Numbered from the stretch's first letter, positions 2,582 through 20,000 are shown. The stretch: DNA of 20,000 bases from a bacterium (GCA_046331705.1 JAXLQJ010000017.1:112439-132438), one strand, 5' to 3'. Made by a program: numbers and translations. Notes: generated from the sequence alone by a model not told the origin.

Positions 2582-2928
2582 CGACGCCCTCCTGAGCGCG
2601 ACGGGGCAGCACCCGAGCTCGCGCGCCCGGCGACGGCGAACTTGAGCTCGCGTGCATCGACCGCCGCCTTCACCCGCAACGCGTCCAGCACGCGCCGCTC
2701 CTCGAGCTTGAGATCTTGGCTCACGACCGGGTGGTCCACCTCGATCACGACGGCGCCGTCGCGCCACGCGATCGGACGACTGTGCGCCGCGAGCGTCGCG
2801 CCCGCGGCATCGGGCCACGCGCTGCGCAGCCTGAGCAAGACGCCGCCCGCGCCGAGATCTCCGCCAGCGAACATCCCGGCGAGGACATCCCCCAACGTTT
2901 CCGGTCGTGCGGTGCGTCGCTCGCTCAT
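2578..2928 (-). CDS. DUF721 / DciA-like protein (116 aa)
   Basis: Pattern PETLGDVL...LRSAWPDAAGATLAAHSRPIAWRDGAVVIEVDHPVVSQDLKLEERRVLDAL...LKF matches the DUF721 family (W..xVG..IA.H..P....G.L.V.V......L). Start chosen at MSERR (2928). Confidence 0.75.
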   Translation of the reverse strand: MSERRTARPETLGDVLAGMFAGGDLGAGGVLLRLRSAWPDAAGATLAAHSRPIAWRDGAVVIEVDHPVVSQDLKLEERRVLDALRVKAAVDARELKFAVAGRASSGAAPSRSGGRR

Positions 2929-2964
2929 CGGTGGCCAGTCGACCGTGGCGGCCACGGCTGCGGC

Positions 2965-2994
2965 AGAGTAGCGCTCGGGATCGCCCCAGCACAA
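2965..2994 (-). promoter_or_regulatory. Candidate sigma70-type promoter for the DUF721-TetR pair
   Basis: Minus strand TTGTGC-N18-TACTCT, about 36 nt upstream of the ATG at 2928. Partial consensus only. Confidence 0.25.
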
Positions 2995-3043
2995 GAAATC
3001 TTCGCGTCCGCGCCACATCCGCGAGAACCCTTCTTCGCTTGCC

Positions 3044-3052
3044 TGTTAGGAT
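3044..3052 (+). promoter_or_regulatory. Candidate extended -10 promoter for the histidine kinase operon
   Basis: TG-T-TAGGAT (TGnTAnnnT) ends 8 nt before ATG 3061. No Shine-Dalgarno lies between them. Confidence 0.4.
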
Positions 3053-3060
3053 TCGCGCCC

Positions 3061-4148
3061 ATGGACGCTCCACTCGCGGGCGTGGCCGCGCTGGCGGCGG
3101 CACTGGGCCTGGCGGCGGCGGGGATCCAGCGCGGCGCGATCCGCCGAGAGCGTGCGCTCGCCGCGCGGATCGACGAGCTCTCGCGCGAGCTCGCCTCGGC
3201 GCGCGACCAGCTGGCGGCGCGGCGCGCGGCGAGCGCCGAGTCGCAGGCCCTCGAGGAACGAGCGCGCGCGATCGACGCACGCAAGCTCGAGGTGGATCGA
3301 GCGATCGACGGCATCGCCCGCGCGCAGCGCCAGCTGGTGCAATCCGAGAAGCTCGCGTCCCTGGGCCGGATGGCGGCGGGCGTCGCGCACGAGTTCAACA
3401 ACCCCGCGCAGCATCTCATCATCAACCTGCCGTTCCTGCGCCGCGCCATCGATCGGCTGCGCCGCGTCCTCGACGTCGCGCTCGCGCTGCCGCCCGCCGA
3501 TGCGGCCGCCGCCGAGCGGCTCGCGAAGGCGATGGAGGACGCGAAGCTGGCGCGCACCAACGCGGACCTCGACGAGATCCTCGAGGGCCTCGAGGAGGGC
3601 GCGACCCGCATCGGCGAGCTGGTGCGCGACCTCACGACCTTCTCGCGCATGGACACCGGCGACCTCAAGCAGGTCGACGTCCACGAGGGCCTCGATGCCA
3701 CCATTCGGCTGCTCGGCTATCGCTTGAAGGACCGCATCGAGATCCATCGCGACTACCAGAAGCTGCCCTCCATCCGCTGTCACGCCGGACAGATCAACCA
3801 CGTCTTCATGAACCTGTTCGCGAACGCCGCGGACGCCATCTCGGGACGCGGCAACGTGTGGGTGAAGACCGAGCCCGTGGGCGGAAACCGGATCCGCGTC
3901 CGCATCAGCGACGACGGCTCGGGCATGAGCGCCGAGACCCTGGCCCGCGTCTTCGATCCGTTCTTCACCACCAAGGAGCCCGGGCGCGGAACCGGCCTGG
4001 GCCTTGCTACGAGCTACGACATCGTGACTCGACACGGCGGAAGCATCTCGGCACAAAGCGATCCCGGCATCGGCACGGTCTTCACCGTGGAGCTTCCGCT
4101 CGAGCCCGAGTTCGTGGAAAAGCCCGCGTCCGCGGGGAGATCCGGCGA

Positions 4149-4152
<4 letters not shown>
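3061..4152 (+). CDS. Sensor histidine kinase (NtrB/HupT-like HisKA-HATPase) with one N-terminal hydrophobic segment and a coiled coil (363 aa)
   Basis: [25 protein letters not shown] (H box), NLFANAADA (N box), ISDDGSGM (G1), FDPFFTTK (F box), GTGLGL (G2). Confidence 0.93.
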
Positions 4153-5665
<1,513 letters not shown>

Positions 5666-5669
<4 letters not shown>

Positions 5670-6874
5670 CCGCTGCGGCAGACGGCGACCGGCCCGTTCG
5701 CATCGCGGTTCTCGGGCTCGGGGCCGAGCTCGCGACGCGACTCGAACGCGATCTCGCCGCGGCGAACCAGGCCGCCGAGATCGTGAGGATCGACGAGACC
5801 GGAACGAGCGAGCTCTCGCGGTTCGGCGAGCTCGACCTGGTCGTCGTCGACCCCAAGAGCGGCAGTCACCCGACCGTCGAGCTCCTGACGCAGCTACGTG
5901 CCGCCGTCCCCGGCGCCGGCTTGATCGTGCTCACGCGTCACGCCGACACCGACGACCTCTATCAGGTGGTGCGGCTGGGCGGGATCGAGCGCTACTGGAT
6001 CCTGCCCTGGTCGCACGTCCACGCCGCCGAGCTGGCGCAGCTGGTCGCCGAGCGCAGGCTCGCCAACGAACGCGCCGCGCGTGAGCGCCGGCTGGCCGCG
6101 GAGTGTCGGGAGCTCGCCGCCGAGAACCGGCTGCTGCGCAGCGGCGCGAGCGGTGCCCGTCCGTGGAGCTGGTTTCCTCAGCTCAGCGAGGCGATGCAAT
6201 CGTGCCTTCGCGCCGCCCGCGCGCTCGCCGCCGGCACCGAGGACGTGTGCATCGTCGGCGAGCCCGGCTCGGGGCGAGCCACCCTGGCGCTCGCGCTGCA
6301 CACCCACGGCCCACGCGGCGCGGAGCCGTTCGTGCGCCTACCGGCGGCGCTGCTGCGGCGCGGGACGCTCGACGCAGGCGCCGCGGCACCAACCGAGACC
6401 GGCGAGCTGCACGGCGCGCTGCGCGTCGCCTCGAAGTGGGAAGCGGCGCGCGGCGGCACGCTCTTCGTCGCCGACATCGAGGATCTCGACGACGTGGCCC
6501 AGGCGGTGCTCGCGGGACTCGTCACCGGCGACCTGGCGGGCGGCCGCGAGACGCCTCGCCTCGTGGTGAGCGCCTCGGCGCATCCCCGCGAGCTCGGCGC
6601 CGAGGGCTCACTCCACCCGCGGCTCGCCGAGCGCCTCGCCCCCCACGTGATCGCCGTGCCGTCGCTCCGCGAGCGCGCGGCCGACCTCGCGCCGCTCGCG
6701 ACCCAGCTCCTCGAGGAGTGGTCGGAGCGCGTGAAGCGCCCCGCCCCGGTGCTCGATCACCAGGCGCTGGCGGCGCTCGCGCGCCGCTCGTTCGAAGGCA
6801 ACGTGCGCGAGCTGCGCGAGCTCCTCGAGCACGCCGCGTTCCTGAGCGGCAGCGGTCGCTTGGCCATCCACTGA
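5666..6874 (+). CDS. Degenerate sigma54-activator-like protein (pseudo-receiver + probably inactive AAA+, no HTH; 402 aa)
   Basis: Recognisable remnants GEPGSGRA, GGTLFVADIEDL, VPSLRERAADL, FEGNVREL. GAFTGA is absent and the protein ends just after sensor II. ATGA overlap with the upstream activator. Confidence 0.8.
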
Positions 6875-7102: not shown

Positions 7103-7119
7103 CTGGCATGGGCGTTGCT
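7103..7119 (+). promoter_or_regulatory. Sigma54 (-24/-12) promoter
   Basis: CTGGCATGGGCGTTGCT versus consensus YTGGCACG-N4-TTGCW. GG(7105-7106)-N10-GC(7117-7118). It is intergenic, upstream of ATG 7158 and directly downstream of two sigma54-activator-type genes. Confidence 0.75.
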
Positions 7120-7157: not shown

Positions 7158-7637
7158 ATGCGAGCCAGCGTCGCCGCCCCCCGGAATCCGACGAGCGCAC
7201 GATCGTCGCGGAACGCGCTGGCGCTCGTGCTCGCCGTCGCCGGCGCCGGCGGGTGCTCCGCCCGCGCGCTCGAGCCGCGACTCGCCGACCACGCGTTCGC
7301 CAGCGCCTGGGCCAGCCCGCTGGAGGGACCTGCCGTACGCGACACGCGCTTCGGCGTCGACACCGAGGGCGTGACGCTCTGGCTCGCGTTCGCCGACGTC
7401 CTCGACACCCACACCGTTCGAGTCCGCTGGCGCGATCCCTCGGGACGCATCCAGCGCGACAGCGGACCCATCGCGATCAATCGCGAAGGCGGATACCGTC
7501 CGCGCGCCGGCTTCAGCGCGCGCCTGCCGGTGCGCGACGCACCGGCCTCGTTGTGGCCAGGCGAGTGGATCGCGGAGGTCTCGTGGGACGAGCGACCGCT
7601 CCTCGCCCGCACCTTCGTGCTGACGGAGGCTCGATGA
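7158..7637 (+). CDS. Putative lipoprotein / exported beta-sandwich (Ig-like) protein (159 aa)
   Basis: Basic N-terminus, hydrophobic stretch ALALVLAVAGAGG, then Cys33 (imperfect lipobox). Mature part has the pattern VRVRWRDPSG...PGEWIAEVSWD...RTFVL, typical of small Ig-like domains. Its stop overlaps the next ATG. Confidence 0.65.
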   Translation: MRASVAAPRNPTSARSSRNALALVLAVAGAGGCSARALEPRLADHAFASAWASPLEGPAVRDTRFGVDTEGVTLWLAFADVLDTHTVRVRWRDPSGRIQRDSGPIAINREGGYRPRAGFSARLPVRDAPASLWPGEWIAEVSWDERPLLARTFVLTEAR

Positions 7638-8611
7638 ATCTCGCCGCCCCCTCGCCAGCGCCGCTCAGCGCCGCCGCCTCGTTCGTCCACGGCTACCCGT
7701 TCGAGGCGTGGTTGGCCGATCGCGGCCGCGCCACGCCGGCCGAGGCCGCGGCGCTGGTCGCGAGCCTGGCGGCGCAGCTCGAGGCCGCCCGCGCGGTGGG
7801 CGTGACGCCCGGGCTGGCGGTGCCGCGGCTGGTTCGCATCGACGCCACGGGCGCCCCGACCCTCGACGTCTGGGCCGCGACTCGACAGCAGACCCATCCC
7901 GAGGATGCGAGCGCCGCGCGGATGAGGTTCGGCCCGCCACCTGGCGAGACGCTCGACGAGCGCTCGGACGTCTACGTGCTCGGCGTGGTGCTCTACCACC
8001 TGCTCACCGGGCGCTTCCCGTGCACGGGCTCGAATCCGGTGGAGCTGGCGCTCGCGCACCGTCACCACGAGGTCGAAGCGCCCTCACGCATCGTGCCGGG
8101 ACTGCCGGAGGCGCTCGACGCGCTCACGCTGAGCTGCCTCGCGAAGGACCCCAGCGCCCGTCCCACGTCGCTCGCCCTGCTCGCCGACAAGCTCACCGGC
8201 AAGCTGCCCGAGCCGCTTCGCGAGCCGCCGCCGCCGGCGAATCCCGCTTCGCCGCTGCCGAACGTGCGCAGCGCCACGCTTCCGAGCGCCGCTCTGCCAC
8301 CCGCGCTCGCGGCGCCCGCACCCAGTCGGCGCGGCGGCGCCTGGCCGATCGCGCTCGCGGTGCTCGCGGCCGCCGCCGGCGGATGGCAGCTCGCGTCCCG
8401 ATCGACGGCGGGCCGAGACGTCACGATCGCGGCGCCGCTGGCGACCCCCGCGGTCCCCGCAGCGCCGATGCCGCGCATCGCCGCCGAGCCCACCGCCTCG
8501 GCGCCAACGGCGTCGCCCGCAGCGGCGGCCCCCGAGCCCGCGACCCGCGCGGCGACCGCTGCGCCGGTGACGGCGCCCCCGACGGAGCCCCCGACGCGGC
8601 CCACGCCGTAG
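7634..8611 (+). CDS. Membrane-anchored Ser/Thr pseudokinase (C-lobe only) + Pro/Ala linker; N-terminal part of a gene interrupted by TAG
   Basis: GGAGG RBS and ATGA overlap at 7634. Kinase subdomains IX-XI are clear (DERSDVYVLGVVLYHLLTGRFP; CLAKDPSARP). TM segment WPIALAVLAAAAGGWQLA. Ends in the middle of the Pro/Ala linker at TAG 8609-8611. Confidence 0.75.
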   Translation: MNLAAPSPAPLSAAASFVHGYPFEAWLADRGRATPAEAAALVASLAAQLEAARAVGVTPGLAVPRLVRIDATGAPTLDVWAATRQQTHPEDASAARMRFGPPPGETLDERSDVYVLGVVLYHLLTGRFPCTGSNPVELALAHRHHEVEAPSRIVPGLPEALDALTLSCLAKDPSARPTSLALLADKLTGKLPEPLREPPPPANPASPLPNVRSATLPSAALPPALAAPAPSRRGGAWPIALAVLAAAAGGWQLASRSTAGRDVTIAAPLATPAVPAAPMPRIAAEPTASAPTASPAAAAPEPATRAATAAPVTAPPTEPPTRPTP

Positions 8612-9295
8612 CGATCGCACCCCGAGACGCCGAGCGCGAGACCACGCACCCAACCCGTCCGCGCCGCTGCGCCGGCACCGGCGAGCGCGTCCGTCGTCGC
8701 GCCGCCCAGTCCGGCGCCAGCCACGACGGTCACGCCCGCCGTGCCCGCCGCGCACGGCGATCACGAGGCGGAGGTGATGCGATTGCTCGCCGAGGGCGAC
8801 GCGCTGCTGCGACAGAAGAAGTATCTCGGCGGCAGCGAGCCCGGCGCGCTCGATCGCTATCGCGCGGTGCTCGAGCTCGCGCCCCAGCACGCCGAGGCGG
8901 GCGCCAAGGTCCACCTCATCCGGACGACGTACCTCACCCTCGCCCGCGAGCGTCGCGACGGCGGCGATTTCGAGGCCGCGCACCGCTACCTGAGCGGCCT
9001 CGATCGCGCGTTCCCGGGAGACGCGGAGATCACCCGCGAGCTGCTGGCCGTCGACGCGGCGCGGGCCGACGCGAGCCGCACCGGCGAGCTCACGATCGAG
9101 GTGCGCCCGTGGGGCAACGTGTTCGTGGACGGGAAGTTCGTGGATCAGACGCCGATGCCGCCGCTCGCCCTGGGCGCCGGTGCCCACAAGATCGAGGTCG
9201 AGGGCGAGCGCGGCCGTCGCAAGAGCGTCGACGTGACCGTCCACGGCGGCGAGCACCGACGTGTCGCGATCGATCTGGAGAGCGGTGATGGCTGA
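8612..9295 (+). CDS. In-frame continuation after the TAG: Pro/Ala linker, TPR-like helices and C-terminal PEGA-like domain
   Basis: Same frame as 7634-8611 and open from 8612 to TGA 9293-9295. ALDRYRAVLELAPQHAEA is TPR-like. GELTIEVRPWGNVFVDGKFVDQTP..LGAGAHKIEV is PEGA-like. An independent start (GTG 8741 or ATG 8777) is possible but would lack an export signal. Confidence 0.7.
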   Translation, partial: RSHPETPSARPRTQPVRAAAPAPASASVVAPPSPAPATTVTPAVPAAHGDHEAEVMRLLAEGDALLRQKKYLGGSEPGALDRYRAVLELAPQHAEAGAKVHLIRTTYLTLARERRDGGDFEAAHRYLSGLDRAFPGDAEITRELLAVDAARADASRTGELTIEVRPWGNVFVDGKFVDQTPMPPLALGAGAHKIEVEGERGRRKSVDVTVHGGEHRRVAIDLESGDG

Positions 9296-10271
9296 CACGT
9301 CCGCACGAGCACGCCGCGGGCGATGGCTTCTCGTCGCGACCCTCGCGCTGGCGCCGTTCGCGCTCGCCGCGACCGCCCGCGCCGTCCCCGTGGCGATCGA
9401 CGATCCCGAGATCGTCGCGGGCATGGACGCGCTCGGCGCCGGCGACGGCGAGCGCGCGCGGACCATCCTGGAACGCGTCGCGCCGCGCCTCACCGCCGAG
9501 TGCAGCGCGCTACGCGAGAGCCTGGACGGCGACGATGCGCGACTCGTGAGCGCGTGCCACGGCGCCGCGAGCGCCTGGATCCACCTCGGTCTCGCGCGCG
9601 GGCTCGGCAGCGACGGCGCGCTCGCGCACCAGGCTTTCACGCGTGGTCTCGCGCTCGAGCCGGCGGCGCTGCCGCGCGCAGCGCTCACTCCCCCCAAGCT
9701 GCGCAAGCTCTTCGAGGCCGCGCGTCAGGCGGCGCTCGGCCGCGAGCAGGCGGCGGACCCCGGCGGCATCGCCGGGATCGAGCATCACCCACCGCTCGTC
9801 GCCACCCGCGGCCAGCCGCTCCCGCTCGACGTGCGCGTCCACGGCGCGTGGACGAAGGGCGGTTCGATCGACGTCGTCTACGTCGTCGCGGGATTCGACC
9901 AACCGCCGGTGCGCGCCCGGCTTCGCCCCGACGGCGCGCTCGCCAGCACGGAGATCCCCGCGGGCGTGCTGCTCGCGAGTCGCGTTCTTCACTACCGCTT
10001 CGACGCCGTCGATTCCGAGGGACGCGTGCACCGCAGCCGCTGGTACCCGGTGTACGTCGTCGAATCGCTCGCCGACGTCGAGCGAGGCATTCGGGACCGG
10101 CTCGCCGACGAGATCGATGGGCCCGCGCTGGCGTCGATCGACCAGCTGCGCGTCGCCAGCGAGCTCGCTTCCGCTACGGCCCTCCCCGATGGCGTGAGTC
10201 CCGTCGCGCGCCGCCCGGAGTCGCCGGATCGCAGCGTCGCCGGCGAGGTCGCCGCCGCGATCTTCCGCTGA
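9288..10271 (+). CDS. Secreted hypothetical protein, TPR-like helical domain + Ig-like domain (327 aa)
   Basis: GGAG RBS. Signal peptide MADTSARARRGRWLLVATLALAPFALAATARA (AxA site). AHQAFTRGLALEP..TPPKLRKLFEAAR is a TPR-like motif. IEHHPP..GQPLPLDVRV...EIPA...LHYRFDAVD is a beta-sandwich pattern. Confidence 0.7.
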   Translation: MADTSARARRGRWLLVATLALAPFALAATARAVPVAIDDPEIVAGMDALGAGDGERARTILERVAPRLTAECSALRESLDGDDARLVSACHGAASAWIHLGLARGLGSDGALAHQAFTRGLALEPAALPRAALTPPKLRKLFEAARQAALGREQAADPGGIAGIEHHPPLVATRGQPLPLDVRVHGAWTKGGSIDVVYVVAGFDQPPVRARLRPDGALASTEIPAGVLLASRVLHYRFDAVDSEGRVHRSRWYPVYVVESLADVERGIRDRLADEIDGPALASIDQLRVASELASATALPDGVSPVARRPESPDRSVAGEVAAAIFR

Positions 10272-10278
10272 TCCGGGG

Positions 10279-12009
10279 CTACGGCCAGGGCCCGGACTTG
10301 GCGCCGTCGCTGTCGAGGGTGAGCGGCGGATCCTCGGAGGCCGGCGGACGCACGCCTGCGGCGCTGATCGTGTACTTGTCGCAGAGCCCGTCGTCGTCCG
10401 TGTCGGTGACCGTGATCGTGTACCAGTAGTCGCTACCGTCCAGCGCGACGCCGAGGTCGGGAAGCTGCGTGCCGGAGTCACTGTAGGTCTTGGATCCCGG
10501 GCAATTGCCCGAGCCGTCGTCGTACGAGAACGAGCCTCCCGAGAAGAGACGCTCGAGGCCGCTGGCGATGGCTTCGACGTTCCGCCGCGCCTGCGCGCGT
10601 GCGTCTGCGATCGGCAACCCCACCGGCGATCCCGGCAAGACGTCGCCATACCCGAGGCGAATCAAGAGGGGCCGCAGAAACACCCGCCAGCCCATGCCCG
10701 CGGAACCCACCGCCAGCAGCGTCAGCGCGAGCCACCAGGCCCAGCTGCTGGAGCGCGACGCACGTCCGCGCCCCGCGCCCGAACGATCCGAGGCGCTCGA
10801 GTCCCCGTCCTCGAACGGAAGCGGCGACGGCGGCGTGAGGTGGTTCGGCGCGATTCGCTGCGGCGGCGCTCCCGCGTGCGAAGCGCTCTCGGGTGGCGGC
10901 ACGAACGGCGTGCGCTGCTCGAAGAACCGCGACTTGCCCCGCAGATCGCTGGCGATCTGGCGGGCGTCCGCGTACCGATCGTCCCGATCCTTCGCGAGCG
11001 CCTTGAGGATCACGCGCTCGATGCGCTCGGGCAGGTCGGGGCGGTGAGCACGCGGCGGGTCCGGCTGCTCGTTCACGTGCATGAGCGCCGTCTCGAGCGG
11101 CGTCGCTCCCTGGAACGGCACGTCGCCGGTGAACATCTGGTAGAGGACGACGCCGAACGAGTAGAGATCGGCGCGGTGGTCGAGCGGGACGCCACGCTTC
11201 GGGTTCGCTTGCTCCGGCGAGATGTAGACCGGCGTGCCGACCATCTGCCCGCTGGCGCTGAGCTGGGTGGTGTCGATCGCCTTGGCGAGACCGAAATCGA
11301 GGATCTTGACGACCCAGCGGGACTCGGGAGCGTCGGGGTCGAGCAACACCGAGCCGAAGCGCGTCGCGGGATCGACCAGAAAGATGTTGTGCGGCTTGAC
11401 GTCGCGATGGATGACACCGCTCGCGTGGGCGTACGCGAGCCCTTGGGCCACCTGGCAGGCGACGTCGATGCCATCGGCGATCGAGAGCGGACCGTGCACC
11501 TGGATCTGGGTCTTGAGGTCGGTCCCCTCCAGGAACTCCATCGACAGGTAGAACACGTCGCCCACGTTTCCGAGGTCGAAGACCTTCAGGATGTTCGGGT
11601 GCGACAGACGTCGTGCGACGCGGGTCTCGTGCTTGAAGCGCTCGACGATGGTCTCGTCGGCGGGGATCAGGCTCGGGTGGATGATCTTGAGCGCGACGGT
11701 CTCGTCCAGGTCGCGATCGTGGGCGCGGTACACGACCCCCATGCCGCCGCGGCCGATCTTCTCGACGATGTCGTAGCGCCCCGCCACCAAGGCCCCGGGC
11801 CGAAAGAGCGAGGCCCCGAAGTCGGCGCCTGCTTCGGTGGGATACGTGGCCCCCGAACCGGACCCCGACCCGGCCGCCGCCGCCGCAGCGGCCGCCGGGT
11901 CGCGCGTCGTCACCGCGTTGCCCGCCGCCACCGGCGCGAGCGCCATGCCGCAGCACGTGCAGACGGCGGCAGCGCCATCGAGCGCGGTATGACAGCGGGG
12001 ACAATCCAT
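10279..12009 (-). CDS. Membrane Hanks-type Ser/Thr protein kinase with N-terminal zinc ribbon and C-terminal pilin-like extracytoplasmic domain (576 aa)
   Basis: CPRC..CTCCG, GRGGMG, VALK, HRDVKPHN, DFG, GTPVYISPEQ, DLYSFG, LAKDRDDRY. TM segment WAWWLALTLLAVGSAGMGW. Confidence 0.93.
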   Translation of the reverse strand: MDCPRCHTALDGAAAVCTCCGMALAPVAAGNAVTTRDPAAAAAAAAGSGSGSGATYPTEAGADFGASLFRPGALVAGRYDIVEKIGRGGMGVVYRAHDRDLDETVALKIIHPSLIPADETIVERFKHETRVARRLSHPNILKVFDLGNVGDVFYLSMEFLEGTDLKTQIQVHGPLSIADGIDVACQVAQGLAYAHASGVIHRDVKPHNIFLVDPATRFGSVLLDPDAPESRWVVKILDFGLAKAIDTTQLSASGQMVGTPVYISPEQANPKRGVPLDHRADLYSFGVVLYQMFTGDVPFQGATPLETALMHVNEQPDPPRAHRPDLPERIERVILKALAKDRDDRYADARQIASDLRGKSRFFEQRTPFVPPPESASHAGAPPQRIAPNHLTPPSPLPFEDGDSSASDRSGAGRGRASRSSSWAWWLALTLLAVGSAGMGWRVFLRPLLIRLGYGDVLPGSPVGLPIADARAQARRNVEAIASGLERLFSGGSFSYDDGSGNCPGSKTYSDSGTQLPDLGVALDGSDYWYTITVTDTDDDGLCDKYTISAAGVRPPASEDPPLTLDSDGAKSGPWP

Positions 12010-15008: not shown

Positions 15009-16531
15009 GACGCGGCCCGATCGAGCTCTACGTGGGCCTCTTCGCCATGGCGGGGCTCGCGATCCTGATCTTCTTCACCGTCAAGGTGGGCTCGGCGTCG
15101 CTCGGCAAGGAGTACACGGTGCCGATCACCGCGTCGTTCGCGCAGGCGAGCGGGGTCGAGCCGCGCACCCCGGTCAAGCTCGCCGGCGTCAAGGTCGGCG
15201 AGGTCTCCGACATTCGCATCGAGAACAACCGCGCGAAGCTGACGCTGGCGCTCAAGCCCGACGTGGCCATCCCCAGCGACTCGCGCGCCGAGGTGAAGAC
15301 GCTGGGGCTGATCGGCGAGACCTACATCCAGCTCGTGCCCGGCACCAGCACGCAGACCCTCGCCAAGGGCGGCGCGATCGCCAACACCGCCGAGCCGACC
15401 GACATCGAGGCGCTGCTCGGCAGCCTGACGGGCGTGGGCGACAACCTCAAGGCGATCACCGACAGCCTGCGCAACGTGATCGCGAGAGAGCAGACCGAGA
15501 CCGACCTGAAGGAGATCGTCTCCAACGTGCGGGCGCTCACCGCCGGGCTCAAGGAGGTCGTGGATCACAGCGGCGGCAAGATCGACTCGGTGCTCGCCAA
15601 CCTCGACCAGATGACCGGCGGCGCGCGCGACGTGATCACCGAGAACCGCGAGGACCTGCACCAGCTCATCGCGAGCTTCCGGCACGTCTCGGAGCAGCTC
15701 GACCAGATCCTCGCGGCCAATCGCGGGAACGTCGACTCGAGCCTGGCGTCGGTGCGCGAGGCCACCCAGAAGCTCGACCAGACGCTCGCGTCGACGTCGT
15801 CGATCATGGACAAGATCGACAAGGGTCAGGGCACCATCGGGAAGCTCGTCAACGACGACGCCATCGGCAACAAGGTGGGCGACAGCCTGGACTCGCTCGG
15901 TGACCTGCTGGGCACGCCGCGCCGGCTTCAGACCTCCTTCGGCTACCGCGGCGAGTGGTTGGCGAGCTCGGAAGAAGCCAAGAACTACCTGAGCGTCAAG
16001 ATCCAGCCGCGCCGCGATCGCTTCTATCTGCTCGAGTTCGTGTCGAACCCGCTGGTGCGCGTTCGCGACGTCACGACCGTCGAGGAGACCACCGTCGAGG
16101 GCAACCCGCCCTTCACCACCGGCCCGCCGCCCTACCACTACACCACGACCACGCGGAAGCTGAGCGCCAAGGACGACAACCTCCAGTTCTCGGCGCAGAT
16201 CGCCCAGCGCGTCGACGACTTGGTGCTGCGCGGCGGGATCATCGAGTCCAGCGGCGGTGTGGGCGCCGACTACCTGCTCTTCGACGACCGGCTCAGCCTC
16301 GACGTGGACGCCTTCGACTTCGCGCCCGACGACCGCGACAACTTCAACCTGAAGCTCGGGGCGCGCTTTCAGTTCTACCCGAACCTCTACGTCCTGGGTG
16401 GCGTCGACGACGTCCTCAACGATCGCACCAAGTTCGAGACCGGACGCAGCGCGTTCCTCGGCGCCGGCTTCACGTTCACCGACGAGGACTTGAAAACGCT
16501 GCTGCTCAAGGCTCCAATCCCCGGCTTCTGA
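15005..16531 (+). CDS. mlaD: Long MlaD/MCE protein: TM-MCE-helical region-C-terminal beta-rich domain (508 aa)
   Basis: GTGA overlap at 15005. N-terminal [21 protein letters not shown] motifs [11 protein letters not shown] and [15 protein letters not shown]. Heptad-rich middle region, then [11 protein letters not shown] and alternating-pattern beta strands. Confidence 0.9.
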
Positions 16532-16646
16532 GCGGCTTCACCCCCCAGTGGTTCCCCGCGGCGCCCGTCGCGCCGTGGGCTTGGTCCATCGAGGCGCGGC
16601 GCCGGCGGCACCGCCGTCCGGCGAGTCACGAGAGAGGAGTCGACCG

Positions 16647-18200
16647 ATGCAGAAGGTGTCGCGGGCGCTGGTGAGCGTTTCCAACAAGGACGGAGTCGTG
16701 GAATTCGGCCGCGGGCTCGCGGCGCTCGGCATCGAGATCCTCTCGACCGGCGGCACCGCCAAGACCCTCGCCGACGCGGGCGTTCCGGTCACCAAGGTCT
16801 CCGCGGTGACCGGCTTCCCCGAGATCCTCGGCGGACGTGTGAAGACGCTGCACCCCAAGATCCACGGGGGGATCCTGGGCCGGCCGGGGCTCGAGAGCGA
16901 CCGTGCCGAGATGGAACGCGAGGGCATCACGCCCATCGGCATCGTCGCGGTGAACCTCTACCCGTTCGAGGCCACCATCGCGAAGGCCGGCGTCACGCGC
17001 GAGGAAGCCGTCGAGCAGATCGACATCGGCGGGCCGGCGATGGTGCGCGCCTCGGCGAAGAACCACGCGTGGGTCGCGGTGGTCGTCGATCCCACCGACT
17101 ACGCGACGGTGCTCGCGGAGCTTGAGAACGGAGGTGTGGTCGGCGAGCCGACGCGACGGCGTCTCGCGGGCAAGGCGTTCGCGCACACCGCCGCGTACGA
17201 TGCCGCGATCGCCGCCTACCTGGCTCGCGAGGAAGCGGGCGATCCCAACGCGCTACCCGAGCGCGCGATCCTGGCGCTCACCAAGGTGCAGGGGCTGCGC
17301 TACGGCGAGAACCCGCACCAGCGCGCGGCGCTCTACCGCACGGGCCCGGCACTCGCCGGCACGCTGGTCGCAGCCAAGCAGCTCCAGGGAAAGGAGCTCT
17401 CGTTCAACAACCTGCTGGACCTCGAGGCGGCGCTGCGAATCGCGAAGGACCTCGCCGATCCCGCGGCGGTCATCATCAAGCACAACAACCCGTGCGGCGT
17501 GGCGCGCCACGCGACCTCGCTCGCCGAGGCGTATCGAAACGCGCGCGCCACCGATCCCGATTCCGCGTTCGGCGGTGTGGTCGGGCTCAACCGCGCCGTC
17601 GATGCGGAGACCGCCCAGGAGATCGGATCGACCTTCATCGAGGCCGTGATCGCGCCGAGCTTCTCGGCCGAGGCGCGCGACGCGCTCGCCAAGAAGACCA
17701 ATCTGCGGCTGCTCGAGCTCGCGTTCGACGCGCCCAGCACGGCCGGCTTCGATCTGAAGCCGGTCTCTGGCGGGCTGCTGCTCCAGGACGCCGACGCGGG
17801 AACGCTCGCCGCATGCGAGCTCAAGGTGGTCACGCAGCGACAGCCGAGCGACGCGGAATGGGAAGCCCTGCGCTTCGCCTGGGTGGTGGTGAAGCACGTG
17901 AAGTCGAACGCCATCGTGTACGCGAACGCGAACCAGACGGTCGGCATCGGCGCCGGTCAGATGAGCCGTGTCGACTCGTCGCGAATCGCGGTGTCGAAGG
18001 CGCGGCTGCCGCTGGTGGGCACCGTGCTCGCCTCCGACGCGTTCTTCCCGTTCCGCGACGGCGTCGACGCCGCCGCCAAGGCGGGGGCCACCGCGGTGAT
18101 CCAGCCGGGCGGCTCGGTGCGCGACGAAGAGGTGATCGCCGCGGCCAACGAGCACGGCATGGCGATGGTGTTCACCGGCATGCGTCACTTCAAGCATTGA
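16647..18200 (+). CDS. purH: Bifunctional AICAR transformylase / IMP cyclohydrolase
   Basis: GAGGAG RBS before ATG 16647. [66 protein letters not shown]. Confidence 0.98.
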
Positions 18201-18207
18201 GGGCGAC

Positions 18208-19497
<1,290 letters not shown>

Positions 19498-19518
19498 GCA
19501 GGCGCTCGGCGGCGAGCA

Positions 19519-20000
19519 CTACTCGAGCAGCGCTTCGGCAACGATCGGCTCGGGTGGCGTCGGTGTAAGCCAGAGCGCTGCCAGATCCAGCTCGATCGCG
19601 TCGAAGGGCTCGGCGCGAACCGTCTCGCCGCCCGCGTGCGTGCCGGCGATCAGCCAATTCGCGCCGTCGCGCCGCAACACCTCCAGCGTCCGCACCTCGG
19701 GATCGACGAGCCACGCGTGGCTCACGCCCTCGCGGGCATGGATGCGGAGCTTGCGGACGCGATCCAGGCCAGCGGTCGAAGGCGACAGCACCTCGCACAC
19801 CCAGTCCGGGGCGATCGTCAGGTAGGCACCACCGGGCAATTGCGGAACCCGATCGCGGCGCCAACCGGCCAGATCCGGCACCAGGACGTCGCGGCCGAAG
19901 AGTAGCTCCGGCTCGTACAGGAGCCACCAACCGCCCGGCCCGCCGCGACCGCGGCCGAACCCGATCTCGAGGTTCGCGCTCAACACCGAAGCCGCGCGCT
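19519..20000 (-). CDS. Uma2 / DUF820 family PD-(D/E)XK-like protein, 5' end outside window
   Basis: EPEL..VPDLAGWRR, APDWVCEVLSPST..DR..K, AWLVDP. Frame is open to the window edge. Confidence 0.9.
   Translation of the reverse strand, partial: RAASVLSANLEIGFGRGRGGPGGWWLLYEPELLFGRDVLVPDLAGWRRDRVPQLPGGAYLTIAPDWVCEVLSPSTAGLDRVRKLRIHAREGVSHAWLVDPEVRTLEVLRRDGANWLIAGTHAGGETVRAEPFDAIELDLAALWLTPTPPEPIVAEALLE

Follow-up and report, generated by a model that had tools for sequence, protein, structure and literature searches.

A receptor-type Hanks Ser/Thr kinase bearing a type IV pilin head as a candidate periplasmic sensor module

An open question in type IV pilus biology is by what means bacteria perceive surface contact, the pilin pool, or retraction, in short the state of their pili. 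Membrane pilin pools have been reported as being read by sensor kinases in the systems PilS-PilA, PleC-PilA, and FimS-minor pilins (PMC6058289, PMC7196804, PMC5979040), and according to these papers the known pilus-state sensors are histidine kinases believed to detect membrane-resident pilins. Receptor-type Hanks Ser/Thr kinases (STKs), including PknB/Stk1 with PASTA domains and myxobacterial-type STKs with TPR, Sel1, or PEGA modules, combine a cytoplasmic kinase, one transmembrane (TM) helix, and an extracytoplasmic sensor. Here we describe a gene in a 20,000-nucleotide stretch of bacterial DNA (GCA_046331705.1, JAXLQJ010000017.1:112439-132438; hereafter the window) that encodes a kinase of this layout in which the place of the PASTA, Sel1, or TPR sensor is taken by a pilin head. 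On the pilin side, its closest known counterparts include PilE (PDB 4NOA), a minor pilin of Pseudomonas aeruginosa, and Pfam PF16732 (ComP_DUS/PilE-like pilins). The gene may share with PilS-PilA and FimS-minor pilins/PilY1 of P. aeruginosa, and with PleC-PilA of Caulobacter, the logic of a membrane kinase that reports pilin or pilus status; however, PilS, FimS, and PleC are histidine kinases not known to carry any pilin-like domain, whereas here an STK itself carries the pilin head.

The gene occupies positions 10279-12009 on the minus strand, as do all of its features described below, with its stop codon at 10279-10281, and the open reading frame (ORF) list and translation give a 576-residue protein (P0001) ordered, from the N terminus, as zinc ribbon, Hanks-type kinase, linker, TM helix, tether, and pilin head. 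A first-pass annotation had proposed an STK fused to a pilin-like head and placed it at 10279-10745, an interval that spans the stop codon, head, tether, and TM helix. The kinase it postulated is found at 10954-11775 (residues 79-352), where Pfam Pkinase (PF00069) matches with an E-value of 1.7e-48 (165.8 bits; cut-off, 31.7). The G-loop GRGGMG (86-91), VALK (105-108), HRDVKPHN (201-208), DFG (238-240), and SPE (264-266) can be read directly, and the catalytic motifs are intact in P0001 and in all five orthologues checked. By profile and motifs the protein is a Hanks-type STK, with predicted catalytic activity. NCBIfam NF033483 (PknB_PASTA_kin) scores 326.3 bits across residues 72-441 only, below its equivalog cut-off of 450, and Pfam and NCBIfam scans of P0001 returned no PASTA match.

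The C-terminal segment begins with a single TM helix, WAWWLALTLLAVGSAGMGWRVFL (residues 423-445; 10675-10743), preceded by the positively charged RGRASRSSS, in keeping with the positive-inside rule. A 22-residue juxtamembrane Pro/Gly tether follows, RPLLIRLGYGDVLPGSPVGLP (residues 446-467; 10609-10674), whose columns are almost invariant in alignments A1 and A2, and then the 109-residue pilin head (residues 468-576; 10282-10608), consisting of an alpha1-C helix and a four-stranded antiparallel sheet. The last 155 residues (P0002; window positions 10282-10746) read ADARAQARRNVEAIASGLERLFSGGSFSY...YWYTITV...YTISAAG...LTLDSDGAKSGPWP, just as had been quoted in the first-pass annotation, with exactly two cysteines after the hydrophobic helix, C503 (codon 10501-10503) and C543, which presumably form a disulfide. 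Between strands 2 and 3 lies the loop D536-x-D538-x-D540-G-x-C543-D544 (10378-10404), a DxDxDG-like element that we take to be a putative Ca2+ site. Because the positive charges on the N-terminal side of the helix and the two invariant cysteines fit, we predict a kinase-in/head-out topology, with the zinc ribbon, kinase, and linker in the cytoplasm and the head in the periplasm. That the gene encodes a bitopic receptor-type Hanks STK with a pilin-head periplasmic module is, from architecture and homology, at least very nearly certain.

The pilin-like character of the head, proposed earlier from a pattern of residues, is borne out both by direct sequence similarity to genuine prepilins and at the profile level. 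An exhaustive phmmer search with residues 446-576 against 1.84 billion representative proteins gave 25 matches at E ≤ 1e-3, about 14 of which read as true family members. The best non-kinase matches (P0010, P0011, P0012, and P0014; 145-156 residues; E 7e-24 to 4e-19) are 45-49% identical to the kinase head across its whole length, and these, together with the weaker match P0021 (E 7.8e-9, 34% identity), open with a short leader followed by G|FTLVELLVV, which is the canonical signal of class III prepilins. When six kinase heads and 22 pilins were aligned as separate profiles with hhalign, they matched with a probability of 99.94% (E 1.2e-36) over 108 columns at 44% identity. Two free pilins, with 47% and 45% identity to the head, are encoded in the source genome itself (8.17 Mb, 118 contigs), at 9449-9898 of locus L004 (on contig 4) and at 9623-10075 of locus L005 (on contig 11); both pass N_methyl and TIGR02532 (24.1 and 29.4 bits against 16.3), and on ComP_DUS they reach 23.7 and 25.2 bits, slightly under the cut-off of 27.3. 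The earlier guess of a PilE/ComP-type pilin also held for the stand-alone relatives, with 14 of the 30 members of alignment A4 matching PF16732 at E ≤ 0.01 (best, 1.9e-22). On this comparative evidence the head is a true homologue of small type IV prepilin heads. It belongs to a lineage-specific, PilE/ComP-like pilin family, and the genome encodes ordinary, cleavable members of that family at other loci.

The similarity to pilins starts at about residue 468 and extends to the C terminus. The kinase head shares with the free prepilins (L004, L005, P0010-P0014, P0021, and P0035-P0038) the two cysteines, the DxDxDG-like loop, and a terminal G-x-K-x-G-P-W, but those are canonical prepilins of 145-156 residues with G|FTLVELLVV, a motif that the kinase head lacks. 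Conservation across the family falls on fold-forming residues, both cysteines, and the loop D536-x-D538-x-D540-G-x-C543-D/E, with D536, D540, C503, and C543 retained in every stand-alone family pilin (17-18 of 17-18) and in all seven kinases. A word-indexed search with P0002 against proteins of 85-272 residues yielded none of 172 candidates at E ≤ 10, which is a false negative, since the exhaustive phmmer search found free pilins with E-values down to 7e-24. Separately, we discarded as compositional 11 longer phmmer matches (331-3041 residues) that align in multiple stretches, up to 10 each; the seven that were scanned (all except P0028, P0030, P0032, and P0033) turned out to be unrelated, among them PKD, Ig, fn3, and DUF5801 proteins.

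Structure prediction agrees with a pilin-type globular head, alpha1-C packed on a four-stranded antiparallel beta-sheet, as had been anticipated. AlphaFold (AF2) run on the last 155 residues from the single sequence was unusable (pLDDT 47), and with the 30-sequence alignment it gave a model of pLDDT 89.7 and pTM 0.73 in which four strands are preceded by the TM helix, a loop, and a helix of 27 residues; this input alignment contained free pilins, the homology to which was established independently by sequence. The first Foldseek match of the model is P. aeruginosa PilE (4NOA), pilins and pseudopilins fill all of the top 23 rows in a Foldseek-independent search of 48,161 chains, and its feature neighbours in the ESM Atlas are clusters of ComP_DUS pilins (score, 0.92). 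In the model the first helix covers P0002 residues 2-30 and is interrupted by a loop at residues 31-45, so that a continuous alpha1 with a membrane-anchoring alpha1-N is not predicted. The tether, modelled at pLDDT 63-71, has no regular secondary structure.

Several traits of a prepilin are missing from the fused protein. Neither TIGR02532 nor Pfam PF07963 (N_methyl) matches P0001 or P0002, no Gly-1, Phe/Met+1, or Glu+5 signature is conserved in the seven aligned fused sequences, and a glycine before the helix is not conserved in the orthologues, so that a G|F-x-x-x-E motif is absent, in line with the earlier remark that the protein lacks the prepilin G|FTLIE cleavage motif. The tether has no counterpart in pilins, forming a 12-residue insertion opposite a gap in all pilins of alignment A3. 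The two closest paralogous kinases in the same genome are 52-54% identical to P0001 from residue 2 and share its zinc ribbon, kinase, linker, and TM helix, but carry Sel1-like or TPR-like ectodomains; the BLASTP match to the Sel1-repeat paralogue spans residues 1-448 and includes the TM helix. The TM helix thus aligns with non-pilin kinases, and only the soluble head is pilin-derived; since the paralogue match ends at residue 448 and pilin homology begins at about 468, the graft junction lies within the tether. By this comparison a soluble head, the same piece that crystallographers excise from pilins, was grafted onto a kinase-plus-TM scaffold that bears Sel1 or TPR ectodomains in its paralogues. 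The first-pass suggestion that a kinase replaces the cleavage motif was therefore right as to the loss of the motif, but the kinase with its own anchor replaces the entire alpha1-N and not the leader alone. Because the cleavage motif, including Glu5, and alpha1-N are both missing, we infer that the protein can undergo neither PilD processing nor pilus polymerisation.

The GTDB phylum of the source genome comprises only six species genomes, and each of the six has one intact fused gene (open frames of 585-855 residues without internal stops) as well as one or two free pilins of the head family. A single kinase-fused cluster is found among the 1.84e9 representatives, seven fused proteins are present in a collection of 5.8e9 proteins, and a profile search with the kinase-head alignment A2 recovered five loci, all fused orthologues. 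All seven kinase heads group in a single clade (support, 95/96), and the fusion appears to have one origin. Sister to this clade is P0013, a complete 160-residue protein encoded on a 32-kb contig and likewise without the prepilin motif. Both the pilin outgroups and the modular kinase scaffold indicate that the probable direction was from pilin to sensor. In pairwise comparisons with five orthologues, the linker shows the highest dN/dS of the segments (0.24-0.77), against 0.08-0.33 in the head and 0.05-0.28 in the kinase domain, with the proviso that dS may be compressed through strong GC3 bias; by these ratios the fused gene is under purifying selection, the head like the kinase domain. At least 0.69 of the gene's sampled words is present in each of 14 DNA runs, which come from 10 of the 15 studies listed, and near-identical DNA occurs in runs from many studies labelled activated sludge or wastewater. 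An orthologue's public record is annotated merely as "protein kinase", so the architecture is invisible to current annotation.

The first-pass annotation had suggested that such a pilin mimic could engage pilins, the pilus/T2SS platform, or DNA. We propose that the head serves as a periplasmic sensor of a pilin or pilus cue. Held about 20 residues off the inner membrane, it would sit in the layer of unassembled pilin heads and the pilus base, where it could bind a pilus-related periplasmic partner, either the heads of pilins or minor pilins or else the pilus stem or machine. Occupancy by this partner would alter dimerisation of the kinase and autophosphorylation of its activation loop, and the kinase would thereby signal the state of the pilin pool or of the pilus to its substrates in the cytoplasm. 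Ligands that extended pili meet in the environment would be beyond the head's reach unless they entered the periplasm, and it is for this reason, and because of the layer in which the head would lie, that we favour a pilin- or pilus-related partner. We place the probability of this proposal as a whole at about 0.45: that the head is a functional periplasmic sensor is likely, and that its cue is specifically pilin- or pilus-related, predicted from the architecture, is a tentative step that falls just short of even odds.

In one version, which we consider distinctly doubtful taken by itself, the head would be a non-polymerisable pilin decoy that makes head-to-head contact with pilins or minor pilins awaiting assembly, or with the base of the growing or retracting pilus. 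Were this so, the size of the pilin pool, or the extension and retraction of the pilus, would translate directly into Ser/Thr phosphorylation through a pilus-state sensor made from a component of the pilus, a receptor type not yet described. Literature searches, whose coverage does not extend to subscription journals, returned nothing relevant on a kinase-pilin fusion, and we rate the protein as a receptor STK with a sensor module not previously described. A direct link between pilus biology and phosphorylation signalling is possible. More broadly, a soluble pilin head detached from alpha1-N could act as a stand-alone periplasmic sensor module, which would widen the catalogue of sensor domains of bacterial STKs, most of whose signals are unknown. 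The fusion is limited to an uncultured phylum of six species and will be of interest to specialists in type IV pili and bacterial kinases; its head is a defined, expressible 13-kDa domain with which partners could be fished directly.

A number of observations weigh against a sensor of pilin or pilus state. Contacts between pilins, in the filament and in the membrane, are made mostly through alpha1-N, which is missing here, and therefore any contact with a pilin must be head-to-head. At four head positions (K507, D527, W529, and P561) the kinases all share a residue that is never seen in free pilins, a pattern compatible with a new specificity. ComP_DUS (PF16732) scores the kinase head at 14.2 and 15.5 bits (E 0.08 and 0.03), under the cut-off of 27.3, and we read the head as a peripheral relative of that family and not as a member by the curated threshold. 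Searched against PDB sequences, the kinase-only profile (A2) recovered no pilin, its best match being a fibronectin (E 0.1), and the A3 profile, which includes free pilins, reached PDB pilins only through alpha1-N, which the free pilins had supplied; given this blank and the low ComP_DUS scores, the link from head to pilins runs through intermediate free pilins and a pilin-containing model. An approximately unbiased (AU) test did not reject the free pilins as one clade (p = 0.124), the nesting of the kinase heads inside pilins is not significant, and we accordingly do not claim it. There is no pilus gene within the 20-kb window, and its gene order is conserved in five other records, all from close relatives only, so that synteny is silent on function. 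RNA evidence is weak (five contigs of ~160-250 nucleotides from four libraries, at depths of 2-4), and with pieces so short and so thinly covered we claim neither expression nor a single transcript.

The most serious competitor of a pilus cue, doubtful in our view, is that the head was co-opted as a scaffold for a solute unrelated to pili, such as a glycan, a fragment of the cell wall, or Ca2+ bound by the DxDxDG-like loop. In the paralogues this kinase scaffold is joined to other, interchangeable ectodomains, which makes the head one sensor module among several, and other receptor STKs sense through PASTA, Sel1, or TPR modules; the missing pilus neighbours fit as well, as do the four kinase-specific invariant residues, which are surface candidates. 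The family-wide conservation of the D536-x-D538-x-D540-G-x-C-D loop can be read in its favour too, but the loop is equally conserved in free pilins and therefore may be structural and not a sensing site, and the Ca2+ assignment goes by motif resemblance; the single literature match for DxDxDG and pilins concerns PilY1. It is improbable that the head binds no ligand and is a constitutive periplasmic module for dimerisation or localisation, for example at the pilus machine or the cell pole. Activation through dimerisation is common among receptor kinases, and tether and head are both highly conserved, as such a role would have it, but pilin heads truncated at the N terminus are usually monomeric in solution.

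Two further explanations we find very hard to credit. One takes the protein for a true prepilin with a giant cytoplasmic leader, from which PilD would free the head for pili and leave a soluble kinase; the N-in/C-out topology is indeed that of a prepilin, and some orthologues have a glycine immediately before the helix, but the absence from all seven sequences of a conserved Gly-1, a Phe/Met+1, or a Glu+5, the lack of any TIGR02532 or N_methyl match, the alignment of the TM helix with non-pilin kinases, and the Pro/Gly tether that breaks the would-be continuous alpha1 speak against it. The other, the least probable of all, holds that assembly or gene calling joined a kinase gene and a pilin gene, as a draft of 118 contigs might allow; against this, the gene is one uninterrupted frame in all six independently assembled species genomes and in five public records, its words recur in the 14 DNA runs noted above, and purifying selection extends across the junction. 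A periplasmic sensor of pilin or pilus state stays our preferred, if tentative, reading.

The remaining features of the gene lie on the cytoplasmic side. The N-terminal zinc ribbon (residues 3-21; 11947-12003) is a CxxC...CxxC element with C3/C6 and C17/C20 read directly; the pattern CxxC-x(8-14)-CxxC is present in each of five full-length orthologues checked, Zn_Ribbon_1 matches four members of alignment A4, and DZR matches P0001 at no better than E 0.47. An insert of ~17-20 residues (213-232; 11314-11373), which lies between the catalytic loop and DFG, is conserved among the orthologues and has no counterpart in the closest paralogous kinase, where it corresponds to a 17-residue gap in BLASTP against the C46 paralogue. 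The Pro/Ala-rich linker (residues 353-422; 10744-10953) is poorly conserved in alignment A1.

Elsewhere in the genome, the two free pilins stand among genes for pili and signalling. A type IV pilus cluster with flanking glycosyltransferases occupies L005 8283-19500, with three pilin genes (8283-8927, 9013-9591, and 9623-10075; 214, 192, and 150 residues), a prepilin peptidase A24 (11092-11970), four minor-pilin-like genes with N_methyl matches (15985-19500), and a sigma54 response regulator. At L004 9449-16754 the free pilin adjoins a 776-residue HAMP-HisKA-HATPase kinase, with a sigma54 response regulator nearby, an arrangement that resembles PilS/PilR-PilA. A sigma54-type -24/-12 pattern was found near neither the pilin paralogues nor the kinase gene. 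The genome has 42 Pkinase matches, 39 of them above cut-off, and 25 matches to T2SSE (PilB/PilT/GspE-type ATPases), and its signalling and pilus repertoire is myxobacteria-like. Among the stand-alone family members, P0013, P0016, and P0026 are some of those that lack the prepilin motif and keep a hydrophobic N terminus, and the 692-residue P0015 has a 550-residue unannotated N-terminal extension before an intact FTLIELLVV pilin, which could be either a genuine fusion or a gene call that runs too long.

Within the window (GC content, 0.65-0.77), the kinase gene is accompanied by genes for alanine racemase, MlaE/MlaD, purH/purD, a histidine kinase, and two sigma54-type activators, and an operon of lipoprotein, kinase C-lobe, TPR-PEGA, and unknown genes converges on it. 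The histidine kinase gene (2716-4152, plus strand) is followed by an NtrC-type response regulator at about 4149-5669 (in the frame of ORF 2907..5669) and by a second sigma54-activator-like gene, degenerate and lacking any clear receiver or helix-turn-helix (HTH) domain (5666-6874, plus strand). Directly downstream of the two activator genes is a sigma54-like -24/-12 element, TGGCATGGGCGTTGC (7104-7118, plus strand), 40 nucleotides upstream of the lipoprotein ORF at 7158; one such match in the window equals the chance expectation. The 325-residue ORF at 7634-8608 (plus strand) encodes a kinase C-lobe only (Pkinase positions 174-260; 27.7 bits, below cut-off), a TM segment, and a Pro/Ala tail, and a single in-frame TAG (8609-8611) separates it from a TPR protein with weak PEGA similarity in the same frame (8612-9295, plus strand). 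The whole of 7634-9295 looks like a degenerate pseudokinase, possibly split by the stop codon, and homologous pieces occur in related records. At the window's end a gene for a putative restriction endonuclease of the Uma2 family lies on the minus strand (19519-19986).

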